Of a DNA stretch of 64,000 bases, positions 4,372 to 29,430 are shown one piece after another. Each line of letters starts with the position of its first letter. Position 1 is the stretch's first letter. The notes below the pieces were generated by a model. The model saw nothing but the letters and a program-made list of their open reading frames with translations. It was not told where the DNA came from and did not search any database. A program made the translations under genes and the position numbers. Source of the stretch: Marinicella sp. (lineage in GTDB: Bacteria; Pseudomonadota; Gammaproteobacteria; Xanthomonadales; Marinicellaceae); contig OZ246001.1 of assembly GCA_965230295.1 (NCBI GenBank), positions 3,827,502 to 3,891,501 on the forward strand, written 5' to 3'.

Positions 4372-4476
4372 GTTCTTTACATCAATATGAAATTCATATT
4401 TCTCAAGTAAGTTTATATCTGCAATACAACCAGTTGTAGTCAATTATCTTTAATATATTTTGAGTACTCAAACATT

Positions 4477-8939: not shown

Positions 8940-8965
8940 TTATCCACCATAAAAATTTGTGAGTA

Positions 8966-9040
8966 TTGTGCCTGTATTGAACGATTTTCTGTTCCTGCCT
9001 CCTACTATCAGCAGTAAATTCAATAGGTATGGGCACATTT
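8966..9040 (+). repeat. Conserved 3' hairpin element downstream of FG-GAP gene (copy 1)
   Basis: TTGTGCCTGTATTGAACG...CCTCCT...GGGCACATTT. Confidence 0.7.
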
Positions 9041-9531
9041 TAATAAATATGAATTATTTGGTCATAGTTATTTTCAATAACTAGCCTATGCTTATTTGTA
9101 AAACCAGCTGTTGTTTTATTGAGTTTATGCCACCTAGAAAGGCTGTCCAAACAATTTTGGATCCATACTTTGGTTTACTATCATAAACTGATAAAACATT
9201 TTGATACTTGAAAATTAATTCAAAACTCCAAGGGCCTTTATACGTGCCCTTGTGGTAAATGTTGATCAATAAGAGCAGATGTTTATGCTCGTTTTGAAAA
9301 ATAGCCCTGAGTTTTTCAGTTATTGGTTACAGTACAACTAACTCAAAGGCCAGGGCTTAATGCAAATGCGGTAGATGAACAATGCACCCTTGTGAAATCC
9401 GTTGAAATCACTAAAAATTAGTTATTCAAGGGTAATGAGTTTAGAGGTGAGTAATATTTAGGGCAAGGCATCAGCCGAGCTCAGGTACGCTGGAAAACCA
9501 GGTTTTCATCGTCTCCATCCTGATTAATCCA

Positions 9532-10170
9532 TTAGGATTTTTTAATAATTTCATTGTAAATAGTATTTATTTCTTGGCTAATTTTTGAACTTATAAATTC
9601 TTTTGAATAAACTGCATTTAAGTTATATAGAATTATTGGTGTGGTTTTTGACAATCCTAAATTCGTCAATAACTGAATAGGGCTGATCTCAAAGTTTAAT
9701 TAGCTATTCATACCATATGTATGCCGGAGCCATTGAGCAGTTGCTTTTTCACATTTTTTTAATATCTTCTTCAAAGTATTTTTCTAAGACCGTGTTTTTT
9801 ATACAGCGGCTGATTTTGCAGAATCAATTTACTTATATCATCAAAAACTATTATTATATTGGTAATTTGACGTATAGAAACTGTTTTTTGAGATACACGT
9901 TTGGCTACAAAAGAAATATTACCTGAATCTAACTCATTGGAGTTTTGCGCACATTCCCTCTAAATTCACATATTTTTTGCTAAGTGATTGATTGTGAATG
10001 TCATGTATTTGTTAATAGAACAATGGTCAAAAAATGTGATCATCATTGTTTTTTGAAGATTACAACGACACCCATTCTGACCAGTTTTAATCCTAACATT
10101 TATAATGTATCTAATCTAATGTTTACAACTTTAAGTACTGAACCAATAATCATTCAAAGTTATCGGTGGC
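9532..10170 (-). pseudogene. Decayed paralog of the degenerate tyrosine recombinase at 13082-14332
   Basis: Frameshifted minus-strand translation: LGLKL...RQITNIII.FDDISKLILQNQPLY...KYFEEDIKKCEKATAQWLRHTYG...LTNLGLSKTTPIILY...EINTIYNEII*. Compare the intact gene: FGLKI...RQISTIV...DISKIIIQNQSIY...KYFIDDIEKCQMATAQWLRNSFG...LGNYAPLSVILY...DIENIYDQII. Confidence 0.88.
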
Positions 10171-12737: not shown

Positions 12738-13081
12738 AGATCAAATCTTTTCTAATTTTAACTCTGAAATTGGATGCTGAAGAAACTATGAGTACAGGAG
12801 GTATTTTGGGTTTCTAAAGGTGATGATATCAATAGTTTTAGAATACCATGTCTTTATGGTTCTGTGGGTATGTTATGTTGTCATTAACAAATTCATTTTA
12901 CCTCAAATAAATATCTCATCCTCGTCACGGTGCTAAAACTGAAGGAAAGGTCAAAAGGGTTTGGGTAAATGTAAATATTGGAAAAACAAGTTATCTAAGG
13001 GTAAATAAAGAAGAATTTAAATATATATTGAATCTACTTAACATTAAGTGAGGCTTACCAAATAAAATCACATTAATTTAA

Positions 13082-14332
13082 TCAGTTTGAAAGTTTGTTG
13101 TTTTCAATAATTTGGTCATATATATTTTCAATATCCAACTTATATTTATCGGTAAATTTGCCTGCATTTTTAGCTGAATTCACGCGATATAAAATAACTG
13201 ACAATGGGGCATAGTTACCAAGAGTTTTCATTGCCTCAATTGGTCTCATCGACTTATTTTCTACCTTTGCACTCCCAAATGAGTTTCTTAACCATTGAGC
13301 AGTAGCCATTTGGCACTTTTCAATATCATCAATGAAATATTTTTTGTATGTGGTATTTTCATAAATAGATTGGTTCTGAATAATTATTTTGCTGATATCC
13401 ATTAAAGTTGATCCAACAATGGTCGAAATCTGCCTAGTTGTTATTTTCTTTAGTTTATAGGTATTTGAAACCAAAGGAATGATGACATCAGAATCAGTTT
13501 CGAAATATTCAGCCATGTAGCTTAGTTGTGAATTAATTACTTTCAACTGCTCAGAGTTCAAACTGATATAACGTTCATTTGAACCCATGATTTTAAGGAA
13601 TAATTCATTTTCTAAAGAAATTACATCTGAATTTTTCATATTGGAAAGTTCTGTTATTTTGAGCCCGAACTCTAACAAAATGTAAATGATCAAAAAAGCG
13701 CGATTGGCTTCAAAACAATCATAAGAAAAGCGATCGTAATCTGTTTCTTGTGCTAATACTGTTAATATGAACCTAGTTAGCTGGGGGTTTAAAGTTTTGC
13801 TGTTATACCGACTTTCCAATTCGCTGAGAGAATCATCTTTCATGAGATAGGCTGGTACAGGGTTCCTATATAAATAACAATTTGATTTCAAAAATCTGTA
13901 AAGAGTGTGTATTTTCCTAAGTGAGGACCTTACTGAAACCTTGGATCGAATTGATTTACGAAAGGGACGCCATTCAGGATTAATGCTATCATCGATTAAG
14001 ATTTTTTTCTGATGAGTCCCCACCCATCTCTTTAAAGGTTTTGGATTGTAAAGAAATTCAGAGTAGGCCATGCAATTATCTGTCGTGAAAGCAGTAAAAG
14101 AAATGTTATTCTGCTCTAACCACAATAAAAATGTTTCAATTTCTTTGTAATAGGCACTTATGGTGTTTTTCACAGATTCCTTCATTGAAAGAAACTTCAT
14201 AATTGCATCAATATCAGTATTCACAGACAAATCGTTTTCTAAGTCTTTGCACAGGTTTTGGCCTGGAGCAAATACATCTGGCACTCTGTGCAGAATAACT
14301 TTTGAGGATTTATATAACAGTATCGGCTCCAT
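13082..14332 (-). CDS. Tyrosine-recombinase-fold protein with degenerate catalytic motifs (candidate TnsF-like target selector)
   Basis: Core-binding domain (T..AYYKEIETFLLW, WRPF, YLYRNP); box I FGLKITEL (R to K); no GKG/K; box II QWLRNS (H to Q); LGN (H to N); Tyr retained; starts 11 nt after the tniQ stop. Confidence 0.85.
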   Translation of the reverse strand: MEPILLYKSSKVILHRVPDVFAPGQNLCKDLENDLSVNTDIDAIMKFLSMKESVKNTISAYYKEIETFLLWLEQNNISFTAFTTDNCMAYSEFLYNPKPLKRWVGTHQKKILIDDSINPEWRPFRKSIRSKVSVRSSLRKIHTLYRFLKSNCYLYRNPVPAYLMKDDSLSELESRYNSKTLNPQLTRFILTVLAQETDYDRFSYDCFEANRAFLIIYILLEFGLKITELSNMKNSDVISLENELFLKIMGSNERYISLNSEQLKVINSQLSYMAEYFETDSDVIIPLVSNTYKLKKITTRQISTIVGSTLMDISKIIIQNQSIYENTTYKKYFIDDIEKCQMATAQWLRNSFGSAKVENKSMRPIEAMKTLGNYAPLSVILYRVNSAKNAGKFTDKYKLDIENIYDQIIENNKLSN

Positions 14333-14343
14333 AATTTACACTC

Positions 14344-15705
14344 TTAGAAATATGAGTTGATTGCTTCGCCACCGAGATTAAAAATACTCAATAATTTTCT
14401 GGATTGTTTATTATCAAATTCAAAAATATCTTCAGGATAATAAACTGATAGTTTTAATTCATCTAATATGAATGTATATGGGCACCTGCATTCAAAGTTA
14501 TTTTGCAAGCCACCAACTATTTTACCATCGTCACTCTTTTTTGTTTGTTCCAAGAAAGATGACACGTACTTGAAAATACTGAGATAAGTGGTCCATAAAT
14601 CTATCTTATAAACCAACATTGATAGCTCCATAGGCATGCGATAGAACTTTAATTCTGATTTATCACAAATTACTTCATGTCTAATGAAAAACTGATGGAC
14701 TTGAGGTAGCTTAAGGCCACGACTAGTCATGTTGTTATATAAATCAGTAAAAACTGAAGCAGACCTATCTTCTGGCACATAATGACCATCATGAAGTAGC
14801 TTAATTAACTCTAGTGTGTTTGTCTTAATGTGGGCACTTGTTAAATCAGCGGTGTTGTTTTTAAGTAAGCATCTAATTTTTGATAATGATTTTTGGGTTA
14901 CTCTAACTTTTTGCTTATCTAGAGCACTCCAATAGTCATTTTCATTCACAAATCTGGACATATTGTCATCAGTTGTAACAGTATATTTTTGCTTGTTAAT
15001 TCGATAAAAAGGAACTTTTAACTCTTGAGCAAGTTGTTTCTCTGATTCAAATAAATCACCTTCCTTTGCCATTACAGATAAATTGAAAATGTGGTTATTA
15101 TTAATAACAGGCTTTGGAGTGAAAAACTGTGTATCTAAATACAGTTCAAATTTTGGCAGATACTTTTTCGAACGTCTTATGATTGAGTTTAAGAAATGGA
15201 CTTGGTCAAATTTTTCGTCACATGGTATTTTATTTGATTTGACTATTTGATTATCTAATTTTGTACCACAGGAACTACAGCCTCTTGATATTAAGTCATG
15301 AGACATAGGCCAGTGAATTCCACATACATGACAGTTTGTTATTAAATCAGCATCATGAATAGGGCACTTTAGTAACCAAGGTTCATCAAATAGTTTTGTA
15401 TGAAACCCAATCTCAGCGCATTCTGGGCAATGCTTTAGTGGTCTATATCCTTTTTGTAATAAAAGATTCAACCTTTGATCTGATGGAATGTTTGATCTTT
15501 CATACATACTAGCAAGCAATGCAGGCTTGTATGCAATCAGTTTAGAATTAATAAATAGCTCACTTCCTTTGATGCCGACGTTCTTGAATTCTTTAATGAC
15601 TTTGCAGATAGAATTTAACCTTTGATTTGCAATAAGAAACCTGCGATAAGCGGAGTAGGGGCTTTCTCCTGGTCTTTTCAGCATTTGGCCAGTATTAATC
15701 ATCAA
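14344..15705 (-). CDS. tniQ: TniQ/TnsD-family protein
   Basis: Zinc-finger motifs CPEC...CPIH...CHVC...CSSCG; ATGA overlap with tnsC. Confidence 0.85.
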   Translation of the reverse strand: MMINTGQMLKRPGESPYSAYRRFLIANQRLNSICKVIKEFKNVGIKGSELFINSKLIAYKPALLASMYERSNIPSDQRLNLLLQKGYRPLKHCPECAEIGFHTKLFDEPWLLKCPIHDADLITNCHVCGIHWPMSHDLISRGCSSCGTKLDNQIVKSNKIPCDEKFDQVHFLNSIIRRSKKYLPKFELYLDTQFFTPKPVINNNHIFNLSVMAKEGDLFESEKQLAQELKVPFYRINKQKYTVTTDDNMSRFVNENDYWSALDKQKVRVTQKSLSKIRCLLKNNTADLTSAHIKTNTLELIKLLHDGHYVPEDRSASVFTDLYNNMTSRGLKLPQVHQFFIRHEVICDKSELKFYRMPMELSMLVYKIDLWTTYLSIFKYVSSFLEQTKKSDDGKIVGGLQNNFECRCPYTFILDELKLSVYYPEDIFEFDNKQSRKLLSIFNLGGEAINSYF

Positions 15706-16664
15706 ACTAACTCAACTTCATCAGGAATCAAGCCAGAAGCATTTATACTGGCTTCTACCATCTGGCTCATTAGAATAGGGTCATTGACTCCGTTGTTGGG
15801 AATAAAATCAAACAACAATATACGAATCATGGATAGAAAGTATTGAATGGGCCATGACTCTATTCCAGCTTCTTTACGAAAGCATTCCTCATAAACTTGC
15901 CAGATGATTTCTGTAATATCAATTAATCTCCAGTCATCAGACACTTCCTGATTCCATAGGTATTCTTTGGTATACGAGTTTTTCTTTGTAAACAAATATT
16001 TTTGATCAATCTCACTTAAACATGCCTTCAGTTCTATTTCCTTTCTGATTCCATAGAAATTATGAAATTTCAATAAAAACCGTCCCCTTATCAATTCATA
16101 CTGTGGGTTTTCTTTCATCTTGTCTAATAACTGTACCGAAGCAGAATGATTCCCAACAAAGAAAATCGAAAGATGAATCCCAAAATTCATCAATCCATCA
16201 TAGAGTTCAGCAAATACTTCAAACTGTTTAGGCCTAAGTCTTTGCATTTCATCAATAAAAAGAATCAGATTATGAGGAGTTTTAGAATTAGTCGCAGACT
16301 CACCAAGAAAATAAATCAAATCATTAGCCATAATGTCTGCGCGAGTATTCTCAGTTATTGATAGTTCAGCTGAATAGCACAGCTGCCTAAGTATTCCTGT
16401 AATGGTTCCTACATCTCTTGGTGCTATAGAAGTGAAATGGCAATTAATTTTTTGATTTCTTCTTGTGTATATTCGATCTTTGACATGCTGTATTGCCGAG
16501 GTTTTTCCAATTCGGTTAGAACCAAGAATGACCCCTCCAGAGAAGCCATTCAAATGCCATTTATGGATGACCTCAGACAGTTCATCAATCATCGGAGTTG
16601 TTATAAAAAACTCCTTTAGATTCATCATCTGATCATAAATATTTGAGGAGCCATCATTACTCAT
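15702..16664 (-). CDS. tnsC: TnsC-like AAA+ ATPase
   Basis: Walker A GSNRIGKT; Walker B LFIDE; AAGGAG RBS and ATGA overlap with the tnsB stop support a start at 16664. Confidence 0.88.
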   Translation of the reverse strand: MSNDGSSNIYDQMMNLKEFFITTPMIDELSEVIHKWHLNGFSGGVILGSNRIGKTSAIQHVKDRIYTRRNQKINCHFTSIAPRDVGTITGILRQLCYSAELSITENTRADIMANDLIYFLGESATNSKTPHNLILFIDEMQRLRPKQFEVFAELYDGLMNFGIHLSIFFVGNHSASVQLLDKMKENPQYELIRGRFLLKFHNFYGIRKEIELKACLSEIDQKYLFTKKNSYTKEYLWNQEVSDDWRLIDITEIIWQVYEECFRKEAGIESWPIQYFLSMIRILLFDFIPNNGVNDPILMSQMVEASINASGLIPDEVELV

Positions 16665-18565
16665 CTTTTTTCTCCTTTGAATAAACCTCTGTTCCATTCG
16701 AAAGGGTTGTGTGATTTCCCGGTTTGAGTAAGATCTACTTCGTGATTGCTGTTGTTATTAAAATCATTTATTTCATCATCAGTTTTAAGGTGGTCAAAGG
16801 TGTTTATGCTTGAATTAAACTCTTTGGCCAGCCTCACTATTTCTAATGCTTCGCTAGGAAGGTGCTTGTCTCTCATGTGAATATCAAACATATTTCTGAG
16901 GGGATCTTTCAGTTTCAGGTTTTCCTTTCTGGTATATTTTGAGATTCTTTTTTTGGTTCTAAGCGAGAATGGGTGAGACTGCCAAGAAAGTGGAGCCATC
17001 AAAGCTCCAAGAGATGTTCCATCTTCCTTAAATGCTTCAACCACTCTCAAGTCCCTTCTGTCAAAACGGATGGTTATTTTCTGATTTTCTAATTCAGACT
17101 CGTTCAATCCTTCTCCAACATACCGAAGCCCATTAAAACTGATTTCTGGTGCTCGATTGTCACTTTTATACCAACATATTTTTCTGGTGTCTTGAGATAC
17201 AAATGGGCCTATGTTGTCTTCCCTCATTGCATAATTAATCCTTAGTGGATGACGTTCGTTTTGATATTTCAGATAATCTAATGGTGAAAGACCTCCCAAG
17301 CGCTCACGAGGCCGAGTGTTCTCAGCTGACACGACTACACTGATAACTTCTTCTAGTGTGCGCAGGGAAAAAGTAGGAACCTTCTTTGTATTAGATTTTG
17401 TTTCTTTAAGAGGATCTAAAACATGGGAGCCAGTTGTTGATGGAAAACGATGAATAATTTCATTTAATAATTTAAATGCGTACTCAATTAATTGTCTACT
17501 CTTAGGATTTGCTGGTAAACCATAATTGAGGGTTGCTCCCAATGTAATTAAAACATAATCTTTTATACTCTTAGCCCTATGGCATTTTGCATTATCAAGT
17601 CCTACAATGCCAATTGATCGAAATTGAAACTCCTCATCCAGAGCACTTGGTAAACATGCACCCAATTGATATTCTAGCCCTGGTGTTTTCAATTCCATTG
17701 GCTCCCATTTTTCGTTTAGAAAACTGAATAAATTCAATAAGTCATCTTGATTAGGTTCTTTGGTGTAGCACAAAAAGTAAGAAAGAATACAATCAGATGC
17801 AACATCTTTCATCATAAATAAAGAAAGTCGCGAGAGCTTTAATGTTTTAATTACTCCATTATCATCAATAGCTATATTTACTTTTATATCTGTTAACTGA
17901 GAATCCAGTTGTATTTTTTGAAATGGCAGGAGGTCAATAATTTGAGTCTGGTTAATTGACCGCTGTTTTTTCTTCTTTGGCATGCGGTATTTATTAACCA
18001 ATTTATGAAAATACCTTCTACAACTTTCTAATGCCTTGTTAGACTGATCGAAAGGATATTGATCATCAGGCCAGTTTAAGTCTTCCAACTCTGCTAGAAA
18101 CGCTTTATGAAAACTTTTTGGGGTCATGTTTTCTGCATTAGGATCCCTTCGCACAAACGCTTTTACTTTGTTCTTGAGTCTTTCGGTCATTTCTATGTTT
18201 TCCTCAAGAATTTTAGTAAATGAACCTCGAGCTCCTGAACATTTATGCTTACTTAAAGATTTTTTTCTTTTTCCATTATTTATTTTTTGACCTGGAATCA
18301 ATGCTTTAGTTAAAGGTTGATCGTCATCCTCATAACCTGCCAATGCTCTACTCATTAAACGGCTTATTGCTGAAACCGAGATATTTTCCTCATCAGCTAT
18401 ATCTTTAAACCTAATACCTAACAGTACTTTTATTACAATCCGTTGATTTCTTAAAAATTTTGTTCTTTTAACCCCCTTAAATTTCTTATGGTTTACTTTC
18501 GGCCAATTTTTATAATCTCTAAGTAGTGGAGAATACTGAAGCCGGAGTAACCATGTTAACCACAT
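16661..18565 (-). CDS. tnsB: TnsB-like DDE transposase
   Basis: QLDSQLTD, GLDNAKCH and LIEYAF give the D-D-E triad; Mu-transposase-like C-terminus. Confidence 0.88.
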   Translation of the reverse strand: MWLTWLLRLQYSPLLRDYKNWPKVNHKKFKGVKRTKFLRNQRIVIKVLLGIRFKDIADEENISVSAISRLMSRALAGYEDDDQPLTKALIPGQKINNGKRKKSLSKHKCSGARGSFTKILEENIEMTERLKNKVKAFVRRDPNAENMTPKSFHKAFLAELEDLNWPDDQYPFDQSNKALESCRRYFHKLVNKYRMPKKKKQRSINQTQIIDLLPFQKIQLDSQLTDIKVNIAIDDNGVIKTLKLSRLSLFMMKDVASDCILSYFLCYTKEPNQDDLLNLFSFLNEKWEPMELKTPGLEYQLGACLPSALDEEFQFRSIGIVGLDNAKCHRAKSIKDYVLITLGATLNYGLPANPKSRQLIEYAFKLLNEIIHRFPSTTGSHVLDPLKETKSNTKKVPTFSLRTLEEVISVVVSAENTRPRERLGGLSPLDYLKYQNERHPLRINYAMREDNIGPFVSQDTRKICWYKSDNRAPEISFNGLRYVGEGLNESELENQKITIRFDRRDLRVVEAFKEDGTSLGALMAPLSWQSHPFSLRTKKRISKYTRKENLKLKDPLRNMFDIHMRDKHLPSEALEIVRLAKEFNSSINTFDHLKTDDEINDFNNNSNHEVDLTQTGKSHNPFEWNRGLFKGEKR

Positions 18566-19221
18566 AATTTCACCTCAGTATCATATGAAAACGGCCTCTC
18601 TTCTAAATTCATGATAACCATCCCTTTATGACATAATCTATAGAAAGCAATCTCATGAGCTTTTTTATTAAACCTATCATGCTGAGAAATGATGTCACCC
18701 AACTGCTGCTCTGGTGTAATGCTTAAGGAATCTAATATCTTATATTCTTGGTTCTGTGTTTCAATGTGACTGTTTATAACAAGAGCTCTGATAATTTCGA
18801 GCCAGTTAACAGCAAATATTTCTCTATCCAACACTTCTTCATTTGAGATAACCAAGAATTCAATATTTTCTCTTTTTAGGTAGGCTTTTAATGGGATTTG
18901 TATTCTCTGACTAAATTTACCCTTAGGTTTGAGTTCAACAATATATTTCTTGCCATTTTTTACATAGTAACAATCAGGGATATATGGCCTGTTTCCTATT
19001 AAGAATTTGTGTGATTGAGGCACAAATCTTGTTACTTCAGGATCACTTTCTAAAATTGCCGCATGAAGAAATTCGCTCTTCGAATGAAATATTCCAACTT
19101 CTGGAAATTTAATGAATATTTGATAAAAACAATTACTGCCTTCTTCTATTTTTTTCGCGTCAGCCATATGCTGGAAAGGGGTTAATGTATCTGTTTTTAC
19201 TTTTAAATTACTAGTTTTCAT
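18556..19221 (-). CDS. tnsA: TnsA-like PD-(D/E)XK endonuclease
   Basis: SKSEF...LESDPEV...Q, YIPD and IVELKP motifs; overlaps the tnsB start. Confidence 0.85.
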   Translation of the reverse strand: MKTSNLKVKTDTLTPFQHMADAKKIEEGSNCFYQIFIKFPEVGIFHSKSEFLHAAILESDPEVTRFVPQSHKFLIGNRPYIPDCYYVKNGKKYIVELKPKGKFSQRIQIPLKAYLKRENIEFLVISNEEVLDREIFAVNWLEIIRALVINSHIETQNQEYKILDSLSITPEQQLGDIISQHDRFNKKAHEIAFYRLCHKGMVIMNLEERPFSYDTEVKLCG

Positions 19222-19259
19222 CTCTCAATAATTAGGAATAAAACATTTTTAATTTATCA

Positions 19260-19317
19260 AACAACAATATTTATTGGAAGTAACAACAATATTTTCTGTT
19301 GTTACAACATTTTATTG
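19260..19317. repeat. About 22-bp-period direct repeats (ACAACAATATTT-like) with near-palindrome TGTTGTTACAACA; candidate TnsB sites, transposon end or regulator operator
   Basis: ACAACAATATTTATTG (19261), ACAACAATATTTTCTG (19283), ACAACATTTTATTG (19304). Confidence 0.6.
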
Positions 19318-19389: not shown

Positions 19390-19860
19390 ATGGTCGAAAA
19401 ACAAAATAATGTAAAAGGTTACAAACCTGGCCAGGTTTGTGAGCTTATAGGTGAGAGCTATGAAACCCTAAGATATTGGAGAGAATACCTATACCCCAAA
19501 CCTCCCCAAATTCATTTCAGTTTGAATGATATTTTCATTTACCATTTCATAAAATCTTTTATTAAAGGAAAGAGAGTAGATGTCAACGAACTTGAAAAAG
19601 TAGAATGGAGAAAAATTTTACAAAGATGTAGTAGCTTGAGTGCTGAAGAGAAAAAGTCTTGCATTGCTGTATTTGACTTTCAGAGCAGAAAATTTTCTTT
19701 TATAACATCTATCAATCAAATAGATTTAAGCGATGACAGGTACACTTTTGTTTACATGAAAACAATTTTTAATCGATTTAATTTATCATTGCGAAAATTT
19801 GGAAATGCTAGGTCAAATATTGTTCCTATAGAAACCGGCCTTTTTATTGAAGCCTCTTAA
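19390..19860 (+). CDS. MerR-type HTH regulator divergent from tnsA
   Basis: YKPGQVCELIGESYETLRYW resembles a MerR HTH. Confidence 0.65.
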   Translation: MVEKQNNVKGYKPGQVCELIGESYETLRYWREYLYPKPPQIHFSLNDIFIYHFIKSFIKGKRVDVNELEKVEWRKILQRCSSLSAEEKKSCIAVFDFQSRKFSFITSINQIDLSDDRYTFVYMKTIFNRFNLSLRKFGNARSNIVPIETGLFIEAS

Positions 19861-20073
19861 TATTGGTTGGGTTCGGCTAATATTATTTCTTAGTGATTTA
19901 ATCCTGCTGAACTGCCCAATTAAATTTCTACCACATTCCATATTATTTTTTTATTTAAATAATGTGCATCTATGTTTAGTGCTATCTGGTTATCTATGTA
20001 CAATATATTGAGAAAATTTTTTTTAAAGGGAAAAGAGTGCTAGACAAGCTACTCATAAAAATGAGTATTTATT

Positions 20074-20324
20074 TTGAATAAAAAATATCGTTTAACATTG
20101 ATGGTCATATCACTAATTACGATAATAACAATAGGACGTTTATCCACAGGATCATTTGACTTTTGGAGCACTCAATTCTGGTTTGTTTCTGGGGCTTTAT
20201 TACTTATATTACTAGCATTAATTGATCAACCACATTTTTCAAAAGACGCGAACATATTTGTTAACGGTTCGACTGCTCTTATTTCATTATTCGTCGTCCA
20301 ATCCAATGATAGAGATAATTTTTG
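20074..20324 (+). pseudogene. 3'-truncated membrane protein
   Basis: Hydrophobic N-terminus; the sequence switches to FG-GAP coding sequence at about 20325, so the rest of ORF 20074-20463 is off-frame readthrough. Confidence 0.65.
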
Positions 20325-21761
20325 GCCGGGGATTTTAATGGTGATGGCATCGACGACCTCATCATTGGCGCTTGCAGAGCTACCCCTGATGCTGTTAATA
20401 ATGCTGGGCGCAGCTATGTTGTTTTTGGCACACAATCTGGTTTATTTAACCCTTTGGCATTAAGCGATTTGGATGGTTCAAATGGGTTTGTCATAGATGG
20501 TCATATTCCTAATGGTTCATCAGGCAGATCGGTGGCATCCGCTGGAGATGTGAATAACGATGGCATTGATGACATTCTGATTGGTGCACCAGAAGCAACA
20601 AATCAAGTTACACAAGCAGGCATTGTTTATTTGATTTATGGCTCAGATGAAGGTTTCTCTGCACAGCTGAACTTGAACGACCTGAATGGTATCAATGGGG
20701 CGGTCATAAACGGAAACTACATTCAAAGCCGTTTTGGCCATTCAGTGAATGCCGCCGGTGATGTCAATAACGACGGCATTGATGACATCATAATCGGTGC
20801 ACCTGATGTTGATAGCAATGACGTTGTTAGATCTGGTGCTGCGTATATCATTTTTGGTCATGAGCAGGGGTTGATTCATCCTTTGGGTGTATCTGACCTG
20901 AATGGAATCAATGGTTTTGAAATTCGCGGAATAACACAAGAAAATTCAAGAATTGGATATTCAGTGGCTGAGGCTGGCGATGTCAATGCAGATGGCATCT
21001 CAGACATCATCATCGGTAGTGCCTATTTAGTAGGCCATATCGGCGATTTTAATGCCGGTCAGAGTTATGTTGTCTTTGGCAGTGATCAGCGGTTCCCAAA
21101 TCCGTTACAGTTATCTGAGTTAAGTGGAAGTAATGGGATCCAGATTTTAGGTGAACATGCAGATGATCAATCGGGATTTGCGGTGAGTGCTGCGGGAGAT
21201 ATCAACCATGATGGCATTGATGATTTTGCCATCGGTGCTGTCGGTACGGATCATAATGGGTTAGAAAATTCAGGATCTGTGTATGTGATTTATGGGGGTC
21301 ATTCAGAGCTTCCTCACCCTTTTAACCTGAGTTCAATCAATGGCGTTAATGGCTTTCGATTGGATGGAACTGATGCGAGAGCCAATTTTGGGAATGCAAT
21401 CAGTAAAGCACAAGACATTAACCTGGATGGCATGGATGACATCATTATTGGGGCTTTTACTGCACCTGTTCCCTCAGTGACTGATGCGGGCAAAGCATAT
21501 GTCATCTATGGCAGTGATCAACCCATAGGCCACCCCTTCAATCTTTCTGCTTTAAATGGGCTTAATGGATTTGCTGTTTTAGGGTCGGATAATGACAATC
21601 TGGGGAGCAGCGTGAGCGGAATGGGAGATTTCAATAACGACGGAATTAGCGATCTGATTATTGGTGCTTTTAATGCGGCTGTTGAAGATCAAAGCCGTGC
21701 AGGAAAAAGTTATCTGATATTCGGTACCGAGCAGGCCCTTTTTGCCAATGGTTTTGACTGA
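20325..21761 (+). pseudogene. 5'-truncated FG-GAP repeat protein
   Basis: Begins mid-repeat (AGDFNGDG) right after in-frame stops; no signal peptide or RBS; ends ALFANGFD. Confidence 0.8.
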
Positions 21762-21784
21762 CCCTATTAATCTATTTGCGAGCA

Positions 21785-21860
21785 TTGTGCCCGTATTGAA
21801 AGGATTACTGTGTTTCTCTCCCTCCTCTTCACAGTTAATTGACTCGATACGGGCACATTT
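21785..21860 (+). repeat. Conserved 3' hairpin element (copy 3)
   Basis: Perfect 11-bp inverted repeat TGTGCCCGTAT/ATACGGGCACA; inner stem ACTGTG/CACAGT; loop contains CCCTCCTC. Confidence 0.8.
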
Positions 21861-22185
21861 TTATGATGTCTAATCACAGTGCCAAGACACATGTTATAAA
21901 CGATTAAAATATTAAATACCGATGAGCCACAACGAGATAAACGGTTGCTTCCATGCTCCAACATCATCAAAGTCGAAAACTTGCAAATAAAGACTGAGTT
22001 AATTGAGCTGCCCTGACATTACAATTAACTGGTTTGAATCATCCAAGCTCCAAAACAAGCAGTCAAAAGGCGTCCCCCAGTGAGGTCTTTTTGTATTTGC
22101 ATTCAATCAGGTAACAAGTATGTAACAAAATTAATACCCATTGCATCAAGCTTGATAACCGTTTTCCTTGCTTCTGCCTAAACTC

Positions 22186-22216
22186 AAGCCCATCCATCAA
22201 AGTGATGGGCTTTTTT
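22186..22216 (+). terminator. Intrinsic-terminator-like hairpin directly upstream of an RBS
   Basis: AAGCCCATC-loop-GATGGGCTT followed by a T run; AGGAGGAG follows 6 nt later. Confidence 0.6.
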
Positions 22217-22234
22217 ACAAACAGGAGGAGACAA

Positions 22235-23842
22235 ATGAAACCTCAAAAACAACTTTACTGGGCGTTGCTTACGTCTGTATTTTTTAACAACACATCACAC
22301 GCTGGCTTTGATGCCGAATTGAGCTTGAGCGAAATTGAGGGCCTGAACGGCATCGTTGTTCAAGGAGAAAACCCCCATGATATTGCTGGGTTTTCGGTCA
22401 GTCATGCGGGTGACCTCAATGGCGATGAAATTGATGATTTCGTTATTGGTGCTTATGGCGTAGATGAAGGGATTGCCCAGAATGCGGGTCGCAGCTATGT
22501 GGTGTTTGGTTCTGCCTCAGGTTTACCCAGCCCATTGAATCTCTCTACTTTGGATGGCAATAATGGTTTTACCATTCACAGTTCAGCCACCAATGGGGGC
22601 TTTGGTCATTCAGTCAGTCATGCTGGTGATGTGAATCACGATGGATTGGATGATTTAATCATAGGCGCACCTTACTCCAATGTGACCACAATATTCCAAA
22701 CTGGGGCGGCGTACGTGATTTTTGGCCAAGACGAAGGCTTTGACAATGTCATAAATGTTGAAGATTTGAATGGCGATAACGGCTTTGCTATTTTTGGTAA
22801 TCAACAACAGAGTACTTTAGGTTTTTCAGTTTCATCGGCAGGTGACATCAATGATGATGGCATTGATGATGTCATTATCAGTGCACCAAAGACCGATAAC
22901 AATGGTGTCAATGATTCAGGTGCCGCATATGTGATTTTTGGAGATGACTCTGGATTTCCTCACTCTCTTTCCATCTCTGCTTTAAACGGTCTGAACGGAT
23001 TTGAAATTCGTGGTTTTCCATTTCAGTTTAATGGCCCTGAATTAAAAGTAAGTTCGGCAGGAGATGTCAATCACGATAACATCAATGACGTTGTTATTGG
23101 AGGCCCCAGAGTTGGGATAGATGGGCAGGAAGAAGCTGGTGTCGCTGTGGTGGTCTATGGACAATCAACACGCTTTCCTAATCCTGTGCAGATGTCAGAG
23201 ATAGATGGTGATAATGGCGTGCATATTTATGGCATTGCTGCATTTGATCAAACCGGTTACAGCGTCAGTGAAGCCGGTGATGTCAATGCCGATGGCATAG
23301 ATGACCTGATCATTGGGGCCAGAAGAACTGATTTTAATGTCACCAATACTGGATCGGCATACGTGGTTTATGGTCAATCATCAGGGCTTGCGCATCCTCT
23401 GGATTTAAACGACATCAATGGACTCAACGGCTTTCGCATAGATGGAAACTTATTAGGTGCTGAATTAGGCACTTCTGTCCATTCAGCCGGTGATATCAAT
23501 CATGATGGTATAAACGATCTGGTTGTGGGCGCACCAGACGATTTAGTACCAGATACAAATGCAGCAGGTAAAAGTTATGTGATATATGGCTCTGATCAGG
23601 GCATTGGACATCCCATTAATGTGGCGGCTTTGGATGGCAACAATGGCTTTGCCATCGCAGGTTCGGATGACAATGGGAAATCAGGGCAGGCTGTCAGCCA
23701 GGCTGGTGATGTGAACAACGATGGCATCAGCGACTTCATCATAAGTGCCCATTTAGCTGGTGCCAATGGCATAAATGCAGCAGGAAAAACTTATGTGGTT
23801 TATGGCCGTGAAAAGCCTTTGTTTAAAGGTGGTTTTGAATGA
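22235..23842 (+). CDS. Secreted FG-GAP repeat protein (7 repeats)
   Basis: AGGAGGAG RBS, ATG at 22235, signal peptide, FG-GAP repeats; ends PLFKGGFE. Confidence 0.92.
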   Translation: MKPQKQLYWALLTSVFFNNTSHAGFDAELSLSEIEGLNGIVVQGENPHDIAGFSVSHAGDLNGDEIDDFVIGAYGVDEGIAQNAGRSYVVFGSASGLPSPLNLSTLDGNNGFTIHSSATNGGFGHSVSHAGDVNHDGLDDLIIGAPYSNVTTIFQTGAAYVIFGQDEGFDNVINVEDLNGDNGFAIFGNQQQSTLGFSVSSAGDINDDGIDDVIISAPKTDNNGVNDSGAAYVIFGDDSGFPHSLSISALNGLNGFEIRGFPFQFNGPELKVSSAGDVNHDNINDVVIGGPRVGIDGQEEAGVAVVVYGQSTRFPNPVQMSEIDGDNGVHIYGIAAFDQTGYSVSEAGDVNADGIDDLIIGARRTDFNVTNTGSAYVVYGQSSGLAHPLDLNDINGLNGFRIDGNLLGAELGTSVHSAGDINHDGINDLVVGAPDDLVPDTNAAGKSYVIYGSDQGIGHPINVAALDGNNGFAIAGSDDNGKSGQAVSQAGDVNNDGISDFIISAHLAGANGINAAGKTYVVYGREKPLFKGGFE

Positions 23843-23860
23843 TGGTCAAACTTTGAGTCC

Positions 23861-23929
23861 AGTGTTTGTTTTGAACGACTTGCTTTTTCCCACCTCATTT
23901 AGCAAGTTCAGTAGGAATAGGCACATTTT
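23861..23929 (+). repeat. Conserved 3' hairpin element (copy 4)
   Basis: GTGTTTGTTTTGAACGACTTGCT...CCCACCTC...AGCAAGTTCA...GGCACATTTT. Confidence 0.6.
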
Positions 23930-23971
23930 TTAAATCTTTTCTTTTAAAATCAATGCAGATTCAGGGATAAC

Positions 23972-24328
23972 ATGATGAATTCAAAAAATATTAACTATGC
24001 GTTCAGCTTGATGTTGCTGCTGTTGGCTTTCAAGTCACTGGCTGAATCAACCACCATCGAAATTCCTGCCGAATTTCACCCAAACAATGAAGCGCTCATC
24101 TCTGTGGTCAATGTGAATGTGCCCTTAAACGCTACGACAGCCCAGCCTGTCCCTGCTTGTATTATTGTTCATGGCTCTGGCGGGTTGTTTTCTGAAGGTG
24201 AAGTTGGCGAAGCATGTGATACTTCTCCCCATAATATGAGTGGCAATTTCGCTGATTTAATGGCTGTTTTCGAAGAATTAGGCGTGGCAACGATTGCCCC
24301 ATCCAAAGAAAAAAATAGGCTGAATTAA
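23972..24328 (+). pseudogene. 3'-truncated secreted alpha/beta-hydrolase (dienelactone-hydrolase-like)
   Basis: Signal peptide and PACIIVHGSGG motif; runs into AT-rich sequence at about 24305 before any nucleophile motif. Confidence 0.55.
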
Positions 24329-24537
24329 TTTTAGATATCTCTTATGGATAGAAATGCATTTTGATTTACTCTCAATTATTAAATCAGGATTAAATCAGGA
24401 TTTAATAATTTAAATTCTTCATTTGAATGGAATAATACAGCCATAAATAAGTATTTTGGGTTTGAGTAAAAAAGAAATAAGCTGTATAGTTAAACTTGAG
24501 ATCAAGTCTTAACGACAACAATAAACTGAATAATCAA

Positions 24538-25038
24538 ATGAACATGTTAAAAATAATTGTGACAATTACAACTCTTGTTTTATCATCAATAAGTAAGGGA
24601 GATTCCAAAGAAAGTTGTGAAGATTTATATTCAAAAAGTCTTGAAACAGACTTATACCTAACTTACGAATTATTTGATCAAACTCCAGCAAATGGATTTC
24701 GAAAACTTGCGGGTCAATGTCCAGGCGAAGCTGTTAAATTAATAAAAAACTATATTATCATTAACGAAGCAAAAGAAAGCTCCTTGAGATGGCATATTGC
24801 TCAACTGGAAGGAATGATGGGCAATTATCAGGAGGCTATTATCTTTGCAAATACTGTTCTTACTGAACAAAATACTGGACAGTTTAAATGGAATGATTTT
24901 GTTGAGGGTAAAATTGCATATTGGAAACAAGATTTCGAAACCTTAAAAGATAAGATTAAGATTCTTGAAAGTAATTTGGATCATCGGGGGAACAAGATGA
25001 ATGTTGAAATTCTGAAAGGGCATCTTGCTGAAGAGTAA
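24538..25038 (+). CDS. Hypothetical exported helical protein
   Basis: Signal-like N-terminus; no recognised family. Confidence 0.6.
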   Translation: MNMLKIIVTITTLVLSSISKGDSKESCEDLYSKSLETDLYLTYELFDQTPANGFRKLAGQCPGEAVKLIKNYIIINEAKESSLRWHIAQLEGMMGNYQEAIIFANTVLTEQNTGQFKWNDFVEGKIAYWKQDFETLKDKIKILESNLDHRGNKMNVEILKGHLAEE

Positions 25039-25113
25039 ATCAATCTAAATATATAGATTTCGTAATGAAAGTAATCTTTGCATCAATAAAATTCAATATA
25101 ACTGATTGAGTCT

Positions 25114-27645
25114 ATGCACAAAGCTTTCAATGCTCTTTTAGTGCTTTTGTCTCTGTACTTATTATCTGGTGAAACAAAGTCACAGATTCTTGCTGAGTAT
25201 TTAAATAACTTTTCGAAAAACATAATACTTCAGTGTGATTCTGAAAAAAACAAGAATATAGTTCAGGAAAATTCTAACGTTGTTGGTGAATATGTCTTTC
25301 AAGAGTTTAGTTCACCATCACCATATCTTGGCAAAGAAAGCATGGATGTCTCTCATGAACTTGTTTGGACTGAGACAATTCACTCATCTGATGCCTCATA
25401 CATTTCACCTTACTTTAGTCAATACGATATTAAGCCAGAAGACTTCTTTGTTTTAAGATCACCAGATCACACAAGATCTTGGACATATGATTTTGAAGAG
25501 TTAGCTAGTTTTAATGGCAAGGGTTTTTGGGGCATACCAATTCATGGTGATACTGCAATCGTTGAATTATATGCAGGTACAAAACAAGGTTCTGGCGGTA
25601 TAACTATTGGTAAGTTTGCAAAAGGCTTTCCTAAAGATATAGAAAAAACCCAATTCAGATCAATTTGTGGCACAGATGACAGTGAAGAAGCCGTATGTTA
25701 TCAATCAACAGAGCCAACTGTCTATGAAAAATCTCTTGCCGTTGTAAGGCTCAATATTGGTGGTGTCATAGCATGTACAGGTTGGCTCGTAGGCAATGAA
25801 GGACATGTCATTACAAATGAACATTGTATAAGCGTTCAAGCAGCTGCAGAAGTTACTTCAATTGAGTTTTTAGCTGAGGGAGCTGAGTGTTCAGATGACT
25901 GTACATATCCATTTGGCTGTCCAGGAATCATTGAAGCAGCTTCATCACAAGTAGTAAAAATGAATGCTGATTTAGATTATGTTTTGCTCAAACCCAATAA
26001 CCCAATTAACGACCTTCCCTCGACCTATGGCTATTTACAAATGAGGGAAACCGGTGCAGAAATAAATGAACAAATATATATTCCACAACACCCTCGAGCT
26101 TGGGGCAAAAGGATTGCTTATTTTTCAACTGATACAGCTTCAGGCTTAGGAGAAGTTCACAGTTTGAACATGCCACCATGCTCCTTGGTAGGAAGCGATG
26201 TTGGATATCTATTAGATACACAAGGTGGTTCTTCAGGGTCTCCGGTGATTTCATACGACGACCATAAAGTAGTCGCTCTTCATCATTGTGGAATATGCCC
26301 AAATCGAGGGGTTCCTATAGAAAGTATCATTGATGACTTGGGAGACGATTTACCCAATTCTGCTCTATGCGACTCACCAGAACCACCATTAAATCTAGCG
26401 GCTCAACAAAAGAATGACAATGAAATTCAGCTGACTTGGAGTCATGGTGTTGGTGCAGATTCTTACGACATATACAGATCAGTTGGTATGTGTACACATC
26501 AATCTTTGGATTATCAACTTATTGCTTCAAAAGTGGTTGGAACCTCATTTATTGATACAACTGTCTCAGGAAATACCACATATTCTTATAAATTGAAATC
26601 ACACAATCAAACTGTTCAATGTGATTCTTTATTCACTGAATGCTCATATGCAACAGCAACAGGGTTATGTACCATGGCCCCAACTTTTGATGGTTTGGAA
26701 ACGATATCCTCATCACAATCACCAATTTGTAAAACCTCTTTACAGTGGTCACAAGCGGATCAAAATTGTGGAACTAACATCAGTTACAACATTTACAGGG
26801 ATACTGTTGATGATTTCCAACCATCAGTGCAAAATTTAATTTCTGCTTGTGTGGATGGTTTATCATTTAATGACTTTGACCTTCAAAGTGATGCTACATA
26901 TTATTATTCAGTACAAGCAGAAGACAACAGTGGTAATGGATCAGGGTTGTGTGGTTTTGGTAATGAAAACACGAGCCTCACCCAATCAGGTATTAGACCA
27001 ATGGGCCCTAATTCGGTTGTATTTTTTGATGAAGTTCCATCAAGCCAACCCAACGATGCATGGATCGCTGTTAATGGTTCAGGGGATGATGGATCTACCC
27101 ATAATTGGTCAATCACTGATTCCCGCTCATTTTCTCCACCTTATTCTTGGTTCATTCAAGAATATTCAGGTAACAAAGAAAAGTTGTTAATTTACAATAA
27201 TTCGCTAAGTGTAAACAATGAGTTTTATATGCTTGAGTTTAACCAGTTTATGGGGCTTGAAAGACTTAAAAGTGGAGCTGTTTTAGAATACTCAACAGAC
27301 AATGGGGCTACTTGGTATGACATACTTAGAGGGAATGGAGTAACTGTGCCCGACAATTCAAGTCGTATTGAACAAACAGGTTATAATGAAAATCCTTTAA
27401 TTGGTGATGGTGTATTAGCTGGTAGATTAGCATGGACTGGTAACACTTACGACGGCTGGCAAAATGTAAAAGTCTCCTTAGCTGATTTTGATGGAACTGA
27501 CATCAAACTCAGATGGCGATATGGTTCTGATTCGAGTGGCAATAACTATGGGTGGTATGTAGATGATGTCAAAATTTACTCTACATCTTCATGTATAAAC
27601 ATAGCAGATGACTTAATTTTCATTAACGGATTTGGAGAAGTTTAA
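25114..27645 (+). CDS. Secreted trypsin-like serine protease with FN3-like domains
   Basis: Catalytic triad motifs TNEHC, DYVLL and GGSSGSP; PLNL...LTW...SYDIYR FN3 repeats; ends DLIFINGFGEV. Confidence 0.88.
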   Translation: MHKAFNALLVLLSLYLLSGETKSQILAEYLNNFSKNIILQCDSEKNKNIVQENSNVVGEYVFQEFSSPSPYLGKESMDVSHELVWTETIHSSDASYISPYFSQYDIKPEDFFVLRSPDHTRSWTYDFEELASFNGKGFWGIPIHGDTAIVELYAGTKQGSGGITIGKFAKGFPKDIEKTQFRSICGTDDSEEAVCYQSTEPTVYEKSLAVVRLNIGGVIACTGWLVGNEGHVITNEHCISVQAAAEVTSIEFLAEGAECSDDCTYPFGCPGIIEAASSQVVKMNADLDYVLLKPNNPINDLPSTYGYLQMRETGAEINEQIYIPQHPRAWGKRIAYFSTDTASGLGEVHSLNMPPCSLVGSDVGYLLDTQGGSSGSPVISYDDHKVVALHHCGICPNRGVPIESIIDDLGDDLPNSALCDSPEPPLNLAAQQKNDNEIQLTWSHGVGADSYDIYRSVGMCTHQSLDYQLIASKVVGTSFIDTTVSGNTTYSYKLKSHNQTVQCDSLFTECSYATATGLCTMAPTFDGLETISSSQSPICKTSLQWSQADQNCGTNISYNIYRDTVDDFQPSVQNLISACVDGLSFNDFDLQSDATYYYSVQAEDNSGNGSGLCGFGNENTSLTQSGIRPMGPNSVVFFDEVPSSQPNDAWIAVNGSGDDGSTHNWSITDSRSFSPPYSWFIQEYSGNKEKLLIYNNSLSVNNEFYMLEFNQFMGLERLKSGAVLEYSTDNGATWYDILRGNGVTVPDNSSRIEQTGYNENPLIGDGVLAGRLAWTGNTYDGWQNVKVSLADFDGTDIKLRWRYGSDSSGNNYGWYVDDVKIYSTSSCINIADDLIFINGFGEV

Positions 27646-27815
27646 TAAAAGTTGGCGGTTTACGTAGCTATGTGGTCACTGGGCCCTTATGGAGGTTTGA
27701 TACCCAAATTAGCCCGAATTTAGTCAATCACCCAAGAGTTGACTCAGAAAAACAAATTATCTCAATAGCTTACGTGGGTTTCATGTCCATTTTTGGTTAA
27801 ATCTGGCACATCACC

Positions 27816-28412
27816 CTAAATTTGAATTCGAGGTTCCCAACGATGTGATTTATAGTGTCTGTAGCTTTCAAGAAGAGTAAAGTTGTTATTTTCTTTACTT
27901 AATAAGTTTAATGCTTTTAGATATTCATTTTGATTTGAGAAATTGAAGCCAAAGTTTTGAGGTGATTATAATCTTTTGACGACTTCTAAATATGTTAATA
28001 CTTCTTGTTTATTATTTGGATTGAATGAATGAAAATTTGACCATACAAGTAAGCTGATTTTTTCTCTCATTAAATAAAGATTCAAAATACAAGCATCAGC
28101 ATAAAAACTTACTGGTCCATATGTTTGTGAATGTGCTTGACCATCAGTAGTAACTTCTTTATATGCCAACGAGTGTGACTTCATTTTTGTGAAGCCATAA
28201 ACAAGTTGATCTGCCAAATGTTTAATGTCATTTGCCCAATGGAATGTATTGAACTTCCAATGACTGTTTTGATTTTTATAAAATTTAGTTCTTAAAATAT
28301 TAAATTCAATATCTAGCTGATTAATTTCTACATGCTTACACACATCATCAGTAAGAGAGTGATAAATGTTATCCGCATTGTCAAACACGTCTTTATTCGT
28401 TAAGTTTGTCAT
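27816..28412 (-). pseudogene. HEPN-domain (R-x4-H) protein interrupted by a premature stop
   Basis: ORF 27966-28412 continues in frame past TAA to ...ESYRHYKSHRWEPRIQI*; RHYKSH at 27860-27843. Confidence 0.6.
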
Positions 28413-28528
28413 GAAACTACCAAGTTCATAGAAACTATAGATTTTACAATTAAATTATGCTCATGTATTAAAGTTAAAAAAAATCAAATTTGCGTACATT
28501 TCATAATTTAATTTAACTGGTGTTTTAG

Positions 28529-28601
28529 TTTAGTGGGTTAGTTGTAACTTTAGTGGGTTAGTTGTGAAAAGTTTAGTGGTTTAGTTGTGCCTCCAAAAAC
28601 A
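28529..28601 (-). mobile_element. Tn7-like transposon end facing into the island
   Basis: Minus strand TGTTTT-TGGAGGC-ACAACTAAACCACTAAA-N6-ACAACTAACCCACTAAA-N3-ACAACTAACCCACTAAA: three 17-bp repeats at 20-23 bp period; terminal TG at 28595 or TGT at 28601. Confidence 0.75.
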
Positions 28602-28631
28602 TGGAATAGGTTTGTTAAATGATTAATTAAA

Positions 28632-28659
28632 TATACGCATAATATATATTATGTTAAAT
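28632..28659 (+). other. dif: dif site (XerC/XerD chromosome dimer resolution)
   Basis: TATACGCATAA-TATATA-TTATGTTAAAT versus E. coli GGTGCGCATAA-TGTATA-TTATGTTAAAT; XerD arm identical; genes on both sides mostly point toward it. Confidence 0.92.
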
Positions 28660-28835
28660 AATACATTAATATGTAAATACTAGAGTTGAGAAAATAATAT
28701 TATATATATTTATTTATCAATAATTTAACTATACTTTATAAAGTATATACTCATATACTCATTCATATATTGGTAAATAGAAAATCGGGAGTCTACGATA
28801 ATGGTGATTGATCTGTGTAATTCGTAGAATTTTAA

Positions 28836-29273
28836 TTATTTAAGCCTCACCACCAAAGTGTCACAAGGCGCACCATGAATGATGCTGGACGCTGTGGATC
28901 CGAGTAACAAGCCAATACCATGCCTGCCATGGGAACCAGAAATAATCAAATCGCTGTCATTTTCGGCGGCATATTTTCTGATTTCTTTGGCGGGACTGCC
29001 AATAACTATGTGAACATGATCTTCTGAAACGCCATATTTTTCAGCGATGGCCATCATGGCGGCCTCAGCTTCTTCTTTGTCTTTACTGTGGATACCTGGA
29101 AGATCAGGTGAAGGCGGTGCCAATGAAGCACTGGGGAAAATCATCAAAACGTCCATCACATGGATCAAGTGAAATTCAGTATCGGCCTGTTTAAGTGTCA
29201 TGGCTTGATCCATGATTTGGCTGCAATCGATGAACGGGTCCAAAGCCACTGTGATTTTATTATAGTTTGACAT
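28836..29273 (-). CDS. Universal stress protein (UspA family)
   Basis: ITVALD...DLIISGSHGRHG..LLLGSTASSII; start placed at MSNY. Confidence 0.9.
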   Translation of the reverse strand: MSNYNKITVALDPFIDCSQIMDQAMTLKQADTEFHLIHVMDVLMIFPSASLAPPSPDLPGIHSKDKEEAEAAMMAIAEKYGVSEDHVHIVIGSPAKEIRKYAAENDSDLIISGSHGRHGIGLLLGSTASSIIHGAPCDTLVVRLK

Positions 29274-29326
29274 GATAAATACCATCAAATTAATGAATAA
29301 AATATCACAACACAAGCTCACCGTTA

Positions 29327-29340
29327 TTGATAAAAGTCAA
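29327..29340. promoter_or_regulatory. FNR/CRP-family box upstream of usp
   Basis: TTGAT-AAAA-GTCAA versus consensus TTGAT-N4-ATCAA. Confidence 0.55.
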
Positions 29341-29430
29341 GAAGGGCACCAGAATGACCGCCCTATTTCACAACCTTTGTCAGATTGTATATCAGTAACA
29401 AATCACTTAATATGAAATTTTTGACCATCA

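Follow-up and report, generated by a model that had tools for sequence, protein, structure and literature searches.

Why should a Tn7-like transposon keep, as the last gene of its transposition operon, an intact gene for a tyrosine recombinase (YR) most of whose catalytic residues have been replaced? The question is raised by a stretch of 64,000 nucleotides from Marinicella sp. (contig OZ246001.1, positions 3,827,502 to 3,891,501; hereafter the window, with positions counted from its first letter), where five co-directional and tightly packed open reading frames (ORFs) on the minus strand, between 13082 and 19221, form a tnsA-tnsB-tnsC-tniQ-YR operon. The dead recombinase is probably how the element finds its landing place, because the element ends exactly 36 nt from dif, the chromosomal Xer-type recombination site (two 11-bp arms around a 6-bp spacer, 11-6-11). 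A previous interpretation, made from the letters and ORFs of the window (the sequence-only reading), had already described the five-gene operon with its fifth gene 11 nt after tniQ, and the ORFs bear it out. The coordinates 13082-19221 that it gave take in the operon alone; the true ends of the element are far outside.

The genes by which a Tn7-like element is recognized, tnsA, tnsB, tnsC (for an AAA+ ATPase) and tniQ, are all present in this single operon (Table 1). The Pfam matches of TnsA and TnsB are weak, yet synteny and sizes fit a Tn7-like system, with relatives 40-89% identical. The tniQ product was without any match in the Pfam scan; its N-terminal Cys/His cluster (CxxC/H) is kept in all relatives. 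A divergent gene for a MerR-like helix-turn-helix (HTH) protein lies beside tnsA in every family member examined, and the order HTH / tnsA-tnsB-tnsC-tniQ-YR is found in the 3/3 lineages where it could be read: the window, L001/L002 (86% identical) and L003-L005 (33%). The start codon of the YR gene follows the tniQ stop by 11 nt in two of these lineages, and overlaps it by 4 nt in the third (L003-L005).

Table 1. Features of the window discussed in the text
Feature	Position	Strand	Description
tnsA	18556-19221	-	TnsA-like endonuclease; weak match to Pfam Tn7_TnsA-like_N
tnsB	16661-18565	-	transposase, 634 aa; Pfam Mu-transpos_C
tnsC	15702-16697	-	AAA+ ATPase, TniB-sized, 331 aa; Pfam AAA_22
tniQ	14344-15705	-	453 aa; N-terminal TniQ zinc-finger core and about 300 aa of unassigned C-terminal region
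YR gene	13082-14332	-	416-aa protein of Xer-like tyrosine-recombinase fold, with degenerate pocket and clade-specific C-terminal helix
YR pseudogene remnant	9541-9917	-	ATAQWLRH (AQWLR), LGL and Tyr kept; internal stops
Second YR remnant	9049-9117	-	C-terminal helix only of a further copy (FTNKHRLVIENNYDQII)
MerR-like HTH gene	19390-19860	+	divergent; LRYWR motif; first gene of the cargo side
Control region	19255-19309		GTTGT-N-ACAAC palindrome and two more GTTGT half sites, 21-22-bp phasing
Cargo	19861-28528		from the HTH gene to the right end: membrane protein, two FG-GAP proteins, trypsin-like protease, small ORFs
Right transposon end	28529-28595	+	three packed 17-bp copies of TTTAGTGGGTTAGTTGT; tip ...GTTGTGCCTCCA at 28595
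5-bp target duplication	28596-28600		AAAAC; repeated in front of the left tip at genome 3782384
Chromosomal dif	28632-28659	+	TATACGCATAA-TATATA-TTATGTTAAAT; XerC-type arm toward the transposon

How much of a recombinase is left in the fifth protein may be asked of its fold first. Matches to the Pfam families Phage_integrase and Phage_int_SAM_5 (the SAM-like core-binding domain) are below threshold, and the XerD, XerC, XerA and XerS models match with E-values of 1e-9 to 3e-5, XerD at 1.4e-9, and with scores that in each case fall far short of the cut-off. Scores of 37.7 bits against the NCBIfam equivalog model of XerD (cut-off 329.6) and of 27.1 against that of XerC (cut-off 335) leave the protein out of both of these groups. 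An AlphaFold model built with the alignment of its relatives reached a mean predicted local distance difference test (pLDDT) of 90 and a predicted template modelling score (pTM) of 0.74, and in Foldseek the whole chain aligns over some 360-400 columns to XerA, XerH, lambda Int and Cre (E-values from 2e-8 to 1e-5). The predicted structure is a complete two-domain Xer/Cre fold, with a single core-binding (CB) domain and a full catalytic domain; the sequence-only reading had spoken of a full YR fold. It had also seen no zinc-finger array, rightly: there are five isolated cysteines in the protein, and no CxxC.

A complete fold may house a ruined active site. A HMMER scan of 1.84 billion representatives returned 780 relatives of the YR, only three of which scored below 1e-30, and catalytic residues were compared in an alignment with 106 full-length relatives. 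The catalytic set R-K-H-R-H-Y is found in 93 of these, and tyrosine-recombinase enzymes are defined by R-K-H-R-H/W-Y; the window protein reads K-S-Q-R-N-Y (K225, S251, Q346, R349, N373, Y382), which places it outside that definition, and it further has N350 where the family has histidine. Lost are the first arginine (Arg-I, now lysine), the lysine of the beta-hairpin and both histidines, while the second arginine (Arg-II) and the tyrosine nucleophile are kept. Set against this alignment, the erosion first listed from the sequence (R to K, no GKG lysine, HxxR to QxxR, LGH to LGN) proved right in each item. Arg-I is required for cleavage in Cre, Flp and lambda Int. The same pattern extends through the clade: four members, down to 33% identity, have KSQRNY, KNQRNY or KTKRIY in the pocket, with lysine for Arg-I in 4/4. 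Thus P0002 (86% identical) and P0003 (52%) read K..Q.R.N.Y, and P0004 (33%) K..K.R.I.Y; the degenerate pattern is kept also in the remnant copy at 9541-9917. A C-terminal helix, IENIYDQI, is common to the degenerate clade, and the active relatives are without it.

Could the gene simply be a decaying passenger, with no function at all? The lost catalytic residues and the two pseudogene remnants of the same gene nearby are what such decay would leave behind. We give this explanation next to no credence, as it is contradicted by the ratio of nonsynonymous to synonymous substitution rates (dN/dS), which the sequence-only reading had named as a check: between the window and L001, a metagenomic copy about 85-86% identical, it is 0.11-0.12 for the YR gene, 0.08-0.11 for tnsA, tnsB and tnsC, and 0.25 for tniQ. 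With a value equal to that of tnsA/B/C, the YR gene is not decaying; it is under purifying selection despite its lost catalysis. Furthermore, its frame is intact in three lineages, to 33% identity and with the same substitutions, and the structure model is a confident one. Catalytically intact close homologs, which would have spoken for recent decay of this one copy, were not found, as P0002, P0003, P0004 and the remnant are all degenerate. The YR is therefore a functional protein, the loss of its catalytic residues being old and conserved.

A functional protein without catalysis needs a task, and the ends of the element tell where to look. A three-copy array with a period of 20-23 bp lies at 28527-28589, and a nearly identical one at the far, HTH-side end of the 86%-identical sister element (L044 17269-17331). 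The right-end block 28510-28598 is the same in 86/88 positions (97%) as the right end of this sister, and homology between them ceases at ...CCTCCAAA. The left end of the sister has the same 17-mer three times, inverted and 60-66 bp apart, 246-395 nt past the YR stop, with its tip at ...GTTGTACCTTCA; the tips of the ends read TGGAGG../TGAAGG... The sister element so delimited measures 17,533 bp and is flanked by a perfect TAATT duplication. Contig L042, from another sample, has the sister site unoccupied, the flank continuing into the neighbouring sequence with a single TTATT. For the window genome, the left end has its inverted, spaced sites at genome positions 3782391, 3782456 and 3782516 and its tip at 3782384, outside the window by 45.1 kb on the left; AAAAC is duplicated perfectly on the two sides, and the unit so delimited spans 73,713 bp. 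Inverted ends with three packed or three spaced 17-bp repeats and 5-bp duplications complete the Tn7-like picture.

Other boundaries were considered and abandoned. Ends at 12876/19309 (a TGTTGT at 12876 and the phased TGTTGT array upstream of tnsA, with a duplication matching in 4/5 positions) were rejected in view of the real ends conserved between window and sister. Insertion after genes ending in the motif IFxNGF(E/D) was rejected as well, the 105 bp downstream being paralogous host sequence and the orientation inconsistent in L001, and so was an L003 inverted repeat at 4427/17760, where the units face inward. For the L003 lineage the tentative end candidates are at L043 869 and 18735, a 14-nt exact inverted repeat without duplication. 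An older, diverged type of end (tip TGGACGTCCAAC, units AACCACTTTGGTTGG) abuts the duplication of the newer element at genome 3782300-3782379 and at L041 2569-2640 (..GGTTGGACGTCCA). Since this is seen both in the window genome and in a sister contig, the same point must have been hit repeatedly. The older type is found also at L050, about 720-750; assignment of this TGGACGTCCA-type end to the YR-less operon at genome 3742755-3748675, described below, is not established.

What, then, lies just beyond the right tip? In the window it is dif, a real site at the place named by the sequence-only reading (28632-28659). It is the sole copy in a 4.0-Mb genome, and the cumulative GC skew turns there. 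The skew peak falls within 28000-30000; immediately to the right of dif the G+C content climbs from about 0.30-0.36 to 0.42-0.50, and the low-G+C island stops at the transposon tip and dif. The right tip of the sister (L044) is 34 nt from another site, the 28-bp palindrome ATGTCCGATAC-CCTTTA-GTATTGGACAT (again 11-6-11) at 17372-17399, and in genome G018 a right end of the same type is 35 nt from the same palindrome with another spacer. The sequences between tip and site are unrelated among the copies. The palindrome is a conserved locus of the genus, present in 10/24 genomes, and it is a second landing site for this type of transposon. The window genome has it at 3776321-3776348, unoccupied, at least by an element with this type of end. 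It lies, as ATGTCCGATAC-N6-GTATTGGACAT, about 50 bp upstream of a gene for a 460-aa integrase, and a further copy is found at L047 1558-1585. Neither the sister nor the L003 elements have a dif within 14 kb, and the family is therefore not restricted to dif; it lands beside sites of Xer geometry.

Insertion at a constant distance from a conserved 28-bp site and in a constant orientation, across DNA that varies, is the signature of a bound selector, as with TnsD at attTn7. The YR of the operon, a descendant of binders of dif-type sites, is the obvious reader. We would picture the element as a cut-and-paste transposon with TnsA, TnsB, TnsC and TniQ, the site-specific pathway of which homes to 28-bp Xer-type sites, the homing site in the window genome being the chromosomal dif. 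The YR would bind the 28-bp site without cutting it, bending or marking the DNA, and would position TnsC through contact with TniQ; TnsA and TnsB would then insert the element some 49-50 bp from the site centre, its packed-site end toward the site. That Xer-type sites are marked for TniQ/TnsC by the YR, an independently domesticated and dead Xer-like protein that would bind them, is to our mind somewhat more likely than not; no test capable of overturning this reading did so. The fuller proposal seems to us evenly poised: a Xer-like recombinase would have become a catalytically dead reader guiding TniQ/TnsC to 28-bp Xer-type sites, dif included, as a second, independent TnsF-like invention, and a few substitutions would be enough to retarget it between dif and other 11-6-11 sites.

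Several points weigh against this proposal. Binding of the site by the YR, and its contact with TniQ or TnsC, are inferred. The dif site and the palindrome share only about 10/22 arm positions (an ATA-N8-TAT core), for YR proteins that are 86% identical. No 28-bp site was found beside the tentative ends of the L003 lineage. The unit of 73.7 kb may be a composite in which tandem insertions have fused: each new insertion at a reused site would give an identical duplication, and there are YR remnants within the unit. The tyrosine and Arg-II being kept, there is a small chance of a partner-dependent chemistry. And TniQ could itself be the reader, since it evolves fast and has some 300 unassigned C-terminal residues: between window and sister it is the fastest-evolving protein (75% identity, with the dN/dS given above), and YR-less relatives with a TniQ of similar length exist.

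This last point leads to an explanation in which TniQ needs no help from the YR to read the 28-bp site and does so, in the manner of TnsD, by means of its long C-terminal region, leaving to the YR some other job, such as stabilizing or bending the target, blocking access of Xer proteins, or target immunity. Much in TniQ agrees with it: a length of 453 aa with a large unassigned region, the strongest divergence precisely between elements that use different sites, and the YR-less relatives, which retain a TniQ of 429-473 aa. We hold it rather unlikely nonetheless. It would be a remarkable coincidence if the descendant of a dif-type binder sat in an operon that lands beside dif-type sites for another reason; the YR gene is coupled to tniQ and as constrained as tnsABC; TnsF provides a precedent (PMC10293859). 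The AlphaFold model of TniQ (mean pLDDT 55, not used) is too poor to point to any DNA-binding domain. Within the family, the C-terminal tail LGGEAINSYF of TniQ belongs to YR-bearing elements only.

The residues that survive in the pocket suggest another possibility, that of a working or half-working recombinase subunit, whose partner would be either XerC/XerD of the host or the 316-aa Xer-like product of a cargo gene in the sister, and which would resolve dimers or cointegrates, or exchange modules. Its tyrosine nucleophile and second arginine are indeed invariant, the sister cargo does hold a normal-sized Xer-like gene, and in Tn6022 islands an active XerC-like protein acts on a hybrid dif-like site together with the XerD of the host (PMC11014353). 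Four of the six catalytic positions are lost in the YR, however, Arg-I among them, and the losses are conserved over deep divergence. There is no Xer half site in or beside the operon (no hybrid dif-like or Xer half site was seen within 11.5-20.6 kb), and cut-and-paste transposition has no need of a resolvase, because TnsA is present. We deem such a subunit quite improbable.

Another DNA sequence in the element that the YR might bind is the phased GTTGT array, which begins 86 nt upstream of tnsA. On this explanation the YR would be a regulator or an architectural factor there and not a target selector. The distribution of the array is suggestive, as the palindrome with its half sites at 22-bp phasing occurs in 3/3 YR-bearing elements and in 0/4 YR-less relatives (the other copies are at L001 5015-5100 and L003 5085-5150). 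This correlation is confounded, because the YR-bearing elements also form a TnsB subclade. Moreover, the core of the array resembles the end sites of TnsB (AGTTGT), the adjoining MerR-like HTH gene provides a more obvious binder, and the arms of the palindrome in YR-bearing elements are 1-2 bp apart, against 6-8 bp in YR core sites. A purely regulatory YR is accordingly something we judge very improbable. The array at 19255-19309 is a putative internal operator, not a transposon end, and it may serve autoregulation, which would be needed because in this family the tns promoter lies outside the transposon ends.

If the YR is the reader of Xer-type sites, as we favour, its relatives should tell from where it was recruited. 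The family is Xer-like by its hidden Markov models (HMMs), and the gene descends from an active family of Xer-like recombinases. The closest active relatives are found outside transposons, P0005 on a Rep3 plasmid-like contig. Another active one, P0006 (RKHRHY; L016 1-260, in a contig of 3.1 kb), is 220 bp from a canonical dif, GGTGCGCATAA-TATATA-TTATGTTAAAT, a setting that would fit an element integrated at dif with its own Xer-like recombinase. On the side of the transposons, YR-less relatives keep the divergent HTH gene (a second copy in the window genome, two in G122, one in G081, and L045). The copy in the window genome is a paralogous operon of tnsA, tnsB, tnsC and tniQ (453 aa) at 3742755-3748675, about 80 kb left of the window, with about 40% identity; it has an HTH gene of 295 aa and no recombinase gene, and its ends and target were not found. 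Searches of the genome contigs with YR and TnsB profiles gave nothing new, those of the metagenome contigs gave the known contig only, and a DNA search of relatives for synteny or an empty site returned FG-GAP repeat noise only.

The load carried by these elements differs. In sister elements, defence genes dominate between the HTH gene and the packed-site end (L044 7335-17200; L043 7881-18526; L045 1-4850). The sets comprise an MmeI-type restriction-modification (RM) system with helicase, T5orf172 and HNH genes; a type I RM system with SLFN/AlbA_2; and a methylase with PRTase-CE and ORC/Cdc6-like genes. The L044 cargo also holds the 316-aa Xer-like gene. In the window genome, many FG-GAP, leucine-rich repeat and other secreted-looking proteins end in the motif (I/L/V)F-x-(N/D/T)-G-F-(E/D), found in 91 ORFs genome-wide, with gene ends in the window at 753, 2799, 6237, 8939, 10306 and 21761; it resembles a signal for sorting or anchoring but was matched to none known. 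Some 105 bp past the stops of two FG-GAP genes (8940-9044 and 21762-21864) are conserved, with about 74% identity, and may be a shared 3' element.

How does all this compare with known systems? Tn7 is a first reference, with TnsD and attTn7 at glmS (summarized in PMC10293859): the fixed distance and orientation beside a protein-bound site, the 5-bp duplication, the TnsB sites packed at one end and spaced at the other, and the repeated insertions that build islands at the site are common to both. The target differs, being a recombination site here and not the end of a gene, and so does the layout, with a tns operon placed beside the spaced-site end and transcribed outward, the cargo standing between tnsA and the packed-site end. 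Another comparison is with the 'res-site hunters' Tn5053/Tn402, which are related to Tn7 and are led by their TniQ pathway to insert next to a site-specific recombination site. Theirs are the res sites of serine resolvases, with a resolvase provided by the target replicon, and they have no TnsA; in the present case the recombinase-like protein is of the tyrosine type, dead, and borne by the transposon. The integrative mobile elements exploiting Xer (IMEX; the CTX phage, the gonococcal island) integrate at dif itself by Xer catalysis. Present in almost every bacterial chromosome, dif is neutral, single-copy, and placed at the replication terminus. Both kinds of element would share this universal and safe landing site, with the difference that the present one would leave dif intact, a DDE transposase inserting it alongside. 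We found no report in the searchable literature of a DDE transposon homing beside dif by means of a reader that it encodes; if the proposal is true, it adds a new natural targeting mode to the Tn7 superfamily, and a candidate for a broad-host, fixed-site insertion tool.

The nearest comparison is with Tn6022. Its islands have a Xer-family protein tied to a Tn7-like element and to dif-type DNA, as here; that XerC-like recombinase, however, has all catalytic residues, is located in captured DNA outside the tns operon, recombines with host XerD, and is not implicated in target choice (PMC11014353). The counterpart of the window YR is rather TnsF, which derives from a YR, acts as partner to TniQ and is needed for targeting by Tn6022 (PMC10293859, PMC11014353): in both cases an inactivated YR-derived protein comes directly after tniQ in a tns operon, and the element has a fixed chromosomal landing site. 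In TnsF, of 481-498 aa, an N-terminal region of some 180-200 aa holds zinc fingers, there are two CB domains in tandem (CB1/CB2), and the catalytic domain is only partial and lacks the tyrosine chamber; its partner is a short TniQ of 369 aa, and insertion takes place inside the TnsF binding site in comM (PMC10293859). By contrast, the window YR lacks zinc fingers and has a single CB domain; its catalytic domain is complete, Tyr382 included, and the protein still matches XerD models. Its TniQ has 453 aa, the element inserts on one side of a dif-type site and 34-36 nt away from it, and instead of comM the flanks have dif, or else the 28-bp palindrome that precedes an integrase gene. Sequence and structure comparisons, suggested at the outset, both made the YR Xer-like, and hhalign of its family profile against two sequences of the TnsF set (Data S1, PMC10293859) gave a probability of 0.9%, for a TnsF profile that is thin. 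Without zinc fingers, with one CB and a full catalytic domain, and with no similarity to this thin profile, the YR was, we conclude, recruited independently of TnsF, as the sequence-only reading had proposed. If it is a selector, domestication of a recombinase into one happened at least twice. As the intermediate keeps the full fold, the present case opens the route from enzyme to reader to direct study, and two close YR proteins serving two different 28-bp sites make a ready-made specificity-swap experiment.

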